DNA of 64,000 nucleotides from Dongiaceae bacterium (GTDB lineage: Bacteria > Pseudomonadota > Alphaproteobacteria > SHNJ01): NCBI GenBank assembly GCA_050182275.1, contig JBFXCK010000002.1, positions 154,202-218,201 of the forward strand, given 5' to 3'. The notes beneath the pieces were generated by a model, which saw only the letters and a program-made list of their open reading frames with translations, was not told where the DNA came from and did no database searches. A program made the translations under genes and the position numbers. This document shows, piece after piece, positions 45,665 through 46,010 of the stretch (position 1 is the stretch's first letter; each line of letters opens with the position of its first letter).

Positions 45665-45935
45665 TGGTGAGTGAGAGCGGTTGAGGATCGAACCAGCCAA
45701 GCAAAGCGAAGCTTTGTTGGCGCAAAAATGGTGGGTTCGCTAAAGATCTCGGAAAACTGGTGAGAGCGGTTGAGGATCGAACCAGCCAAGCAAAGCGAAG
45801 CTTTGTTGGCACAAAAATGGTGGGTTCGCTAAAGATCTCGGAAAACTGGTGAGAGCGGTTGAGGATCGAACCAGCCAAGCAAAGCGAAGCTTTGTTGGCA
45901 CAAAAATGGTGGGTTCGCTAAAGATCTCGGAAAAC
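45665..45935. repeat. three tandem ~89-bp units (93, 89, 89 bp), each a diverged 26-nt tRNA-Lys 3'-end copy plus a conserved hairpin module; abuts the genuine tRNA-Lys
   Basis: Unit: tggtgagagcggttgaggatcgaacc + agccaagcaaagcgaagctttgttggcacaaaaatggtgggttcgctaaagatctcggaaaac. Units 2 and 3 are identical. Unit 1 carries an extra gtga and a g/a difference. The same module architecture occurs at 14480..14572. Confidence 0.85.
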
Positions 45936-46010
45936 TGGTGAGAGCGGTGGGGATCGAACCCACGACCCACTGGTTAAAAGCCAGTTGCTCTACCGCTGAG
46001 CTACGCTCCC
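45936..46010 (-). tRNA. tRNA-Lys (anticodon TTT)
   Basis: Reverse complement GGGAGCGTAGCTCAGCGGTAGAGC..loop CTTTTAA..GGTTCGATCCCCACC..CGCTCTCACCA. 75 nt. Confidence 0.85.

Follow-up and report, generated by a model that had tools for sequence, protein, structure and literature searches.

Tandem palindromic modules that copy the tRNA 3′ end behind tRNA-Lys, and a single related module behind tRNA-Asn, in a Dongiaceae genome

Introduction

The RtT repeats have been an oddity of the Escherichia coli tyrT operon since the late 1970s to early 1990s, and their function is still unclear. Here we describe an analogous arrangement in a 64,000-nucleotide stretch of contig JBFXCK010000002.1 (positions 154,202 to 218,201), hereafter called the window, from the metagenome-assembled genome (MAG) GCA_050182275.1 of a member of the Dongiaceae (Rhodospirillales), for whose CoaD the closest relative elsewhere is only ~65% identical. 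Behind two of its tRNA genes, tRNA-Lys(UUU) and tRNA-Asn(GUU), lies a constrained palindromic module whose ends copy the adjacent tRNA; at tRNA-Lys it forms a tandem, probably copy-variable array. A preliminary description, made from the letters of the window, had noted the array and interpreted its units as tRNA-like. The feature is real and was accurately described, but the interpretation is partly wrong.

Several other kinds of short element invite comparison. REP, BIME, and REPIN sequences are short intergenic imperfect palindromes that form tandem clusters of variable length and can stabilize or terminate transcripts, and REP families comprise tens to hundreds of dispersed copies that are unrelated to the neighboring gene. 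Plant mitochondrial t-elements and the mascRNA of MALAT1 are cloverleaf-like mimics of tRNA that are cleaved by RNase P and RNase Z. The mascRNA has been described as a tRNA-like processing signal (PMC8457004). Serial direct repeats with an insertion point in the T-loop have been reported at ssrA (PMC3146451). As for the RtT repeats themselves, a passage in PMC3318445, citing Bösl and Kersten (1991), states that one of the repeat units in the tyrT operon encodes the rtT RNA. This RNA has been described as expressed and processed from the operon transcript, with a possible link to the stringent response (bioRxiv 10.1101/2024.07.17.603846), and as expressed in Klebsiella (PMC4147364).

A tandem array on the 3′ side of tRNA-Lys

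Tandem Repeats Finder detected one tandem array, at positions 45671 to 45960, with a period of 89 bp, 3.3 copies, 98% matches, no indels, and a score of 559. A repeat search returned three in-register copies of 100 nt at spacings of 89 and 89 nt (identities of 100, 99, and 99%). Together with the tRNA gene found by ARAGORN and Rfam, these results bear out the earlier report of three tandem 89-bp units on the 3′ side of tRNA-Lys. Since tRNA-Lys is encoded on the minus strand, the array lies on its downstream side, that is, in the DNA of the tRNA-Lys 3′ trailer, where it fills the gap between tRNA-Lys and the convergent coaD gene (45087 to 45611, plus strand). The array is not a CRISPR array, as had also been stated, because whole 89-bp units are identical and there are hence no unique spacers. 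The two tRNA-proximal units had been correctly called identical and the distal unit correctly credited with a 4-nt insertion (GTGA/TCAC), while an additional substitution in the distal unit (G instead of A at 45721) had been overlooked.

Unit A, next to the tRNA, consists of GUUUUCC, GAGAUC, UUUAG, CGAACC, CACCAUUUUUGUG, the hairpin, CU, GGUUCG, AUCCUCAACC, GCUCUC, and ACCA, in this order. Its pseudo 3′ end, TGGTGAGAGCGGTTGAGGATCGAACC, agrees with the authentic end of tRNA-Lys, TGGTGAGAGCGGTGGGGATCGAACC, at 24 of 26 positions with one gap. For the hairpin, GCCAAGCAAAGC-GAA-GCTTTGTTGGC, the window holds exactly three matches; the expectation from 100 shuffles is 0. That each unit joins a diverged copy of the T-loop, acceptor, and CCA end to a strong hairpin was thus confirmed. 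Two shorter blocks are similarly overrepresented, block 1 (TAGCGAACCCAC) with four matches in the window against 0.15 expected and block 2 (GCTGGTTCGATCC) with four against 0.05. Derivation from the tRNA in sense orientation is limited to the last ~25 nt of the unit; the other match to the tRNA is the antisense block 1. Coordinates of all features are collected in Table 1.

A homologous module behind tRNA-Asn

Inspection of the DNA that follows the window's four other tRNA genes revealed a single homologous module directly behind tRNA-Asn. It aligns with the Lys module at 54 of 65 positions (83%) in blastn, with an E value of 1e-11, and scores 78.9 bits in nhmmer. Its pseudo 3′ end, CCCUAUCAAAGGCGAGCCA, resembles the end of tRNA-Asn (CCCUACCCAGGGAGCCA) and not that of tRNA-Lys. 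The module ends in …GGCGA-G-CCA and tRNA-Asn in …CAGGGA-G-CCA, with a discriminator G in both, and the direct repeat at this locus extends 6 to 18 nt past the CCA into the trailer (AAUUUC…UUUCUA). Both modules are in sense orientation and directly follow the CCA of a tRNA. Among the six tRNAs in the ~95 kb that we scanned, only those for Lys and Asn have the T-loop GGTTCGATCC together with the module; tRNA-Cys, tRNA-Pro, tRNA-Arg, and tRNA-Glu have neither.

The two loci have not diverged evenly. Block 1 is identical at 12 of 12 positions and GCTGGTTCGATCC at 13 of 13. The hairpin differs by one double change from C-G to U-A and by one extra C-G pair beside the loop, with the bulged C and the UUC loop retained, and 100% of its cells are paired when the loci are compared. 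The spacer, on the other hand, differs at 5 of 10 positions. Counted together, block 1, the hairpin, and the following GCT show no uncompensated difference in 39 positions, against 7 in 16 for the spacer and left flank (Fisher P = 6e-5, or 0.009 with the compensated changes included as differences). Constraint therefore acts on the blocks and the hairpin, at the RNA or the DNA level, between which this comparison does not distinguish.

From the two loci, the general order of the module on the tRNA strand is a U-rich trailer of 7 to 15 nt, an inverted segment of the T-arm and acceptor 3′ part, a U-rich spacer, a conserved hairpin of 11 to 12 bp, and a direct copy that starts in the T-loop (GGUUCGAUCC) and takes in the 3′ strand of the acceptor, the discriminator, and the CCA. 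At both loci every real and every pseudo CCA is followed by a U-rich tract. Such tracts are a wider habit in the window (10009 to 10563, 14573 to 14786, and 45936 to 46010): a T-rich tract directly follows the CCA of the four tRNAs that stand alone or come last (TTTTT for Pro, ATTTTCT for Arg, AATTTCT for Asn, and GTTTTCC for Lys) as it does each pseudo CCA, while tRNA-Cys, which is followed by tRNA-Asn, has no such tract.

Predicted fold of the module

RNAfold pairs CGAACC with GGUUCG, i.e., block 1 with the pseudo T-loop, and, in the Lys units, GAGAuC with GcUCUC, so that the strong hairpin is enclosed and ACCA is left free. The predicted fold of the whole transcript of tRNA plus array has a z score of −4.0. 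As modeled, a unit carries the tRNA 3′ segment twice, inverted in one arm and direct in the other, and so makes a long, imperfect palindrome; pairing of the two copies would fold the module into a single long and imperfect hairpin whose NCCA tail stays free.

This differs from the mini-helix of pseudo T-arm and CCA that had been proposed as a tRNA-like structure. The strands of the pseudo T-stem, GCUGG and CUCAA, pair at two positions only, and the 5-bp stem closing a 7-nt UUCGAUC loop that makes a T-arm is absent from the units. In the predicted fold, the structure is closed instead by the pseudo 3′ part, which pairs with the inverted copy of the same tRNA segment farther 5′ in the unit. We took either ARAGORN detection or the gathering score of the Rfam model RF00005 (29 bits) as the mark of a tRNA; tRNA-Lys itself scores 73 bits, while ARAGORN found no tRNA in the units and the Rfam model had no match there even at an E value of ≤10. 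Folded alone, the last 32 nt of a unit pair differently and reach −5.3 kcal/mol; the authentic T-arm is formed, at −8.4 kcal/mol. The 5′ two-thirds of the unit have no sense similarity to the tRNA (z ≤ 0.9), and we likewise rejected the unit as a decayed copy of a whole tRNA: semi-global alignment of its 5′ 63 nt with the first 50 nt of the tRNA gave z scores of −1.0 to 0.9 over 2,000 shuffles. Like t-elements and mascRNA, the units are structured, tRNA-derived elements beside a functional RNA and could direct endonucleolytic end formation; they differ in that they do not score as tRNA-like.

Table 1. Positions of the tRNA genes, modules, and associated features in the window
Feature	Position	Strand	Basis
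tRNA-Lys(UUU), 75 nt, CCA encoded	45936..46010	-	ARAGORN; Rfam RF00005, 73.1 bits
Unit A, tRNA-proximal, 89 nt	45847..45935	-	Repeat searches; RNAfold −20 kcal/mol, z = −2.3
Unit B, 100% identical to unit A	45758..45846	-	Repeat search; pairwise alignment
Unit C, distal, adjoins coaD, 93 nt; G at 45721 and 4-nt microduplication in the pseudo-acceptor (CUCACUCACCA)	45665..45757	-	Sequence; repeat search
Conserved hairpin, 11 bp, one bulged base, 3-nt loop, −12.1 kcal/mol	45874..45899 (unit A); 45785..45810 (unit B); 45696..45721 (unit C)		Pattern search; folding
Block 1, TAGCGAACCCAC, inverted copy of the 5′ half of the tRNA-Lys T-arm (GTGGGTTCG)	45909..45920; 45820..45831; 45731..45742	-	Pattern search
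Block 2, GCTGGTTCGATCC, where the direct copy of the tRNA 3′ part begins	45863..45875; 45774..45786; 45685..45697	-	Pattern search
tRNA-Asn(GUU), second gene of a tRNA-Cys/tRNA-Asn pair; T-loop GGTTCGATCC, as in tRNA-Lys	14573..14647	-	ARAGORN; Rfam
Single homologous module (block 1, 14545..14556; hairpin, 14508..14535; block 2, 14497..14509)	14480..14572	-	blastn; nhmmer; patterns
Putative promoter TTGACC-17 nt-TAAAAC, 13 nt upstream of tRNA-Lys	46024..46052	-	Read from the letters; inferred only
Strong terminal hairpin CCAUCC..GCUUGGC-UUU-GCCAAGC..GGAUGG between the array and the coaD stop codon	45633..45667		Inverted repeat; −21 kcal/mol
85-aa open reading frame across the array, annotated as hypothetical protein AB7O99_02465 in the source MAG	45621..45878	-	Open reading frame call

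Comparison with RtT

In the annotation of E. coli K-12, tyrT and tyrV are followed, behind tyrV, by the small RNA gene rttR and by tpr. Tandem Repeats Finder gave 3.1 copies of a 178-bp repeat with 95% match, and the final 19 nt of tRNA-Tyr, AATCCTTCCCCCACCACCA, form the end of each unit. As a positive control, the Rfam model of RtT, RF00391, matched four E. coli units at 133 to 138 bits. Its consensus has an outer helix, in which GgGaaGGAU pairs with the pseudo-tRNA segment AUCCuuCcC, hairpins in the interior, and a …CCACCA tail that stays single stranded. Counts across 4,700 complete E. coli genomes gave 1 to 9 RtT units per genome, with a median of 2; from this range, instability in copy number is a property of such arrays. 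The fourth unit lies between tyrT and tyrV (positions 1364 to 1495 of K-12 1286000 to 1288200), and each unit holds an internal T-arm-like AAGGTTCGA and thus more than one tRNA-derived fragment, as do the Lys units.

The Lys array and RtT have much of their plan in common. Both are tandem units directly 3′ of a tRNA gene and on its strand, in about three copies; in both, the end of the unit copies the tRNA from the T-loop to the CCA; and in both, this end copy pairs with an inverted 5′ copy, with a free CCA tail and internal hairpins, which for the Lys units is the predicted fold. The number of units varies in both, between strains in E. coli and between assemblies here. There are also differences. 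Neither the sequence nor the RtT covariance model shows any similarity between the two; the unit is 89 bp here and 178 bp in E. coli; the host is an alphaproteobacterium and the tRNAs are those for Lys and Asn, whereas RtT goes with tRNA-Tyr; and the pseudo end, identical to the tRNA in RtT, is slightly diverged. One internal module, moreover, serves two tRNAs here with ends matched to each, and we know of no RtT case in which one internal module serves two different tRNAs. The Lys and Asn modules are analogous to RtT and are not members of the RtT family.

Copy number in a second assembly

One other assembly of the same species-level population, GCA_050247815.1, is 99.87 to 100% identical across the window. 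It has two units in place of three, i.e., exactly one fewer, with flanks that are 100% identical, so that at least two units are independently supported. The difference is either a true copy-number polymorphism or the collapse of two identical units. No Logan contig spanned the array locus; contigs of the read sets SRR27751815 and SRR27751816 match the window at 100% identity. The amplification had been described as recent, and both the identity of the proximal units and the counts of three and two in near-identical assemblies agree with this. We also noticed that single-nucleotide polymorphisms (SNPs) between the two assemblies are unevenly spread, with 8 in the first 11 kb (1 to 10937), 19 in the last 14 kb (49850 to 64000), and none in the ~34 kb in the middle (10397 to 44470), which suggests recombination between closely related strains or the consensus of a mixed population.

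Searches for further copies

We looked for further copies of the module with nhmmer and patterns in the window, in an extension of the contig of ~30 kb beyond it, and in 80 coaD loci of relatives, and found only the four already known. In the related loci, none of 29 tRNAs is followed by a partial copy of its 3′ end; only complete tandem tRNA-Lys genes occur there. An origin from a phage, an integrative and conjugative element, or a plasmid was tried as well and rejected: five patterns (the pseudo end, the module core, block 1...block 2, the real Lys 3′ end, and the real Asn 3′ end) had no match in 2.9 million viral contigs, and blastn gave no match to phage records and one irrelevant 26-bp match to plasmid records. 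Besides the five tRNAs, no known RNA family in Rfam exceeded its threshold anywhere in the window.

Favored reading and its alternatives

The reading that we favor, with middling confidence, is that the module is part of the tRNA trailer, co-transcribed with the tRNA, built on an RtT-like plan, amplified by unequal recombination, and cut into CCA-tailed hairpin RNAs. The seed would have been the state seen at tRNA-Asn, a tRNA 3′ end followed by an insert and a second 3′ end. Unequal recombination or replication slippage, at first between the two copies of the 3′ end and later between whole units, would have made the array and may still change the number of units. The tRNA-Lys promoter would drive transcription of the array, which would form the precursor's 3′ trailer; this is suggested by the promoter-like sequences before tRNA-Lys and before the tRNA-Cys/tRNA-Asn operon, where TTGCTT-17 nt-CAAAAC stands at the equivalent position, and by the fact that no terminator separates the array from the tRNA. 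Endonucleolytic cuts near the CCA|GUUUUCC junctions would then free the tRNA's 3′ end and release CCA-tailed hairpin RNAs of 82 to 89 nt, and the module might serve the precursor as an element for processing, stability, or termination. The module, apparently lineage specific, is best classed with the tRNA-trailer repeats of the RtT type, here found in a distant lineage and with other tRNAs.

Several points weigh against this reading. RF00391 had no match in 45000 to 46600 or in 14300 to 14800 at an E value of ≤10 (gathering score of 45 bits), and likeness to RtT does not by itself assign the module a biochemical role. The module was found neither in the 80 related coaD loci nor in the viral contigs or the phage and plasmid records, and a scan of metagenome contigs for the hairpin alone gave one chance match, inside a coding region and without a tRNA. 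Transcription through the array is inferred from its position and the promoter-like sequence. A canonical intrinsic terminator, that is, a GC-rich hairpin followed by a U tract, is absent from the units and from the Asn module; their U tracts sit before the hairpin or 4 to 5 nt past the closing stem. There are three distinct module sequences at two loci, stems A and B offer no usable covariation as their pairs are invariant, and the compensatory changes in the hairpin are equally compatible with a DNA-level palindrome (191 of 500 in the shuffle control). The version with two units, finally, could be an assembly collapse of identical units.

Among the alternatives, it is possible, if unlikely, that the modules are relics or miniature non-autonomous forms of an element that integrates into the T-loop GGTTCGATCC and that the array arose by repeated integration or slippage and does not function as RNA. 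In that case the native tRNA end, displaced, would survive as the pseudo 3′ end (the attR side), and a recombinase would have had its sites in blocks 1 and 2 and in the palindrome. An att-like module or slippage had been offered as an origin in the preliminary description and is still viable; given the single module at tRNA-Asn, a pre-existing arrangement of tRNA end, insert, and tRNA end is the likely seed. A direct repeat from the T-loop to the CCA or beyond is the classic layout of tRNA and tmRNA integrases (PMC1762012; PMC3146451). In the same vein, the module is confined to the two tRNAs with this T-loop, its pseudo ends are locus specific and decayed while the internal part is common to the loci, and block 1 copies the T-arm in inverted, core-like form. 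The ssrA islands of Dehalococcoides (PMC3146451) and the T-loop attB of mycobacteriophage Ms6 (PMC1762012) likewise have partial copies of the 3′ end from the T-loop, downstream of an intact gene and with serial copies possible, but those repeats bound kilobase-scale islands with integrase modules, whereas here a 64-bp palindrome recurs in identical tandem units with a housekeeping gene next to it. Such an origin is further opposed by the lack of any tyrosine or serine recombinase (PF00589 or a serine-recombinase domain) among the called genes of the window and ~30 kb of flanks, by coaD directly adjoining the array, hence no foreign DNA, and by the absence of the real and pseudo 3′ ends and the module core from the viral, phage, and plasmid sequences searched. 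The "element" would also measure only ~64 bp plus the repeat, and the same deletion end points would be needed at both loci. To our knowledge, this is far below the size of any known integrative element. We think it improbable that the module is a palindromic repeat, selfish or neutral and like REP, BIME, or MITE, that happens to occupy tRNA trailers and whose effects on RNA are incidental, even though it is an imperfect palindrome of ~60 to 80 bp, intergenic, present at more than one locus with a tandem cluster at one, and variable in copy number, and the symmetry of a palindrome would by itself account for the paired substitutions. Only two loci were seen in the ~95 kb scanned, both right behind a tRNA and in the same orientation; no terminal target-site duplication of the size left by transposons is present; and the module, seen behind tRNAs only, differs from REP and BIME in that its arms are built from the 3′ segment of the neighboring tRNA and change with the locus. 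We know of no REP or MITE family with ends copied from the neighboring gene. That two loci have the internal part in common and yet match their neighbors at the ends is not explained by any simple single event.

Short-read misassembly, either of the tandem structure or of the third copy, is in our judgment very improbable. With units A and B identical, a short-read assembler cannot fix a number beyond two with certainty, and the two public assemblies do disagree; however, both independent assemblies have at least two units, the distal unit is told apart by one SNP and the 4-nt duplication, the single Asn module is identical in the two assemblies, and the E. coli analogue genuinely varies in complete genomes. 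We find it scarcely credible that the array encodes a small protein, the 85-aa AB7O99_02465, in the manner of E. coli tpr. On the minus strand, each of the three frames stays open throughout the array, and the 85-aa frame is annotated in the source MAG, just as tpr is annotated inside the E. coli repeats, but it has no homologue besides itself in collections of 5.8 billion and 1.84 billion proteins, it starts with TTG, and, the period of 89 not being divisible by 3, the "protein" would amount to one unit read successively in its three frames. None of the frames survives the indels that separate the Lys and Asn modules. As there are no homologues, the period is not a multiple of 3, and no open reading frame is conserved in the Asn module, we judged the frame spurious.

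To return to the trailer reading that we favor, a bolder form of it, which we regard as a long shot, is that the modules are genes for small CCA-tailed hairpin RNAs cut from tRNA precursors, with a free 3′ tail that mimics the acceptor 3′ strand, discriminator, and CCA of the cognate tRNA, acting as decoys or regulators of enzymes that read the tRNA 3′ end, and that they arose independently in Alphaproteobacteria (at Lys and Asn) and in Enterobacteria (RtT at Tyr). Candidate targets of such decoys would be RNase P, 3′ exonucleases, the CCA-adding enzyme, and the sensing of uncharged tRNA by RelA and the ribosome. A second example of the RtT plan (a hairpin flanked by inverted and direct copies of a tRNA 3′ segment, with a CCA tail and amplification in tandem) that is unrelated in sequence would suggest a recurrent, possibly selected design over an accident of one operon. 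Two tRNAs with matched ends are, besides, a natural test of which parts of the module matter. More practically, arrays of this kind yield spurious open reading frame calls, of which one is annotated here, and are copy-number-unstable sites that short-read MAG assemblies resolve inconsistently.

Surroundings of the array and related loci

The coaD gene is preceded by gyrA, and a SulP permease and an alanine dehydrogenase lie on the other side of tRNA-Lys. The GC content of the array region is ordinary, at 0.51, and the predicted trailer RNA is rich in C (C/G ratio of 1.75). A consensus scan did not flag the promoter-like sequence before tRNA-Lys and found no canonical promoter in the Lys units or the Asn module. 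The terminal hairpin beyond unit C has the motifs GCCAAGC and GCAAAGC in common with the unit hairpin, in a different arrangement; it may be an original terminator, ancestral to the unit hairpin, or a further module that has decayed.

A tRNA-Lys(UUU) gene lies downstream of coaD in 23 of the 80 related alphaproteobacterial loci, always on the coaD strand and usually followed by a canonical terminator of hairpin plus T run. Here, the tRNA is convergent with coaD and has no such terminator. The inversion of tRNA-Lys and the module may be connected, given that the module contains T-arm fragments in both orientations. Downstream of coaD, Thalassospira mesophila (positions 4264 to 4835 of its locus) has three complete tRNA-Lys(UUU) genes with a period of 248 bp and Terasakiella pusilla (3746 to 4047 of its locus) has two with a period of 226 bp; the coaD-tRNA-Lys site is therefore prone to amplification in these relatives too.

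Elsewhere in the window, about 6 kb from tRNA-Lys on its 5′ side, the region of ~51950 to 55150 holds a repressor with HTH_3 and Peptidase_S24 domains (CI/LexA-like), divergent from a gene for a small helix-turn-helix protein, and then three genes without a Pfam match; it looks like a remnant of the prophage-immunity type, with no integrase. Directly 3′ of tRNA-Pro (10009 to 10085, minus strand), of whose 3′ end the window contains no second copy, the stretch from 8000 to 10000 has a low GC content (0.35 to 0.40, against ~0.51) and holds a gene whose 265-aa product has a CAP12-PCTIR TIR domain (PF10137); the stretch resembles a small defense islet that has been acquired. The first kilobase of the window (1 to 1000) has a GC content of only 0.35, and a 1,407-aa ankyrin-repeat protein encoded just upstream of position 1 ends 3 bases before the first gene of the window, both of which are unusual for the genome of a free-living member of the Rhodospirillales.

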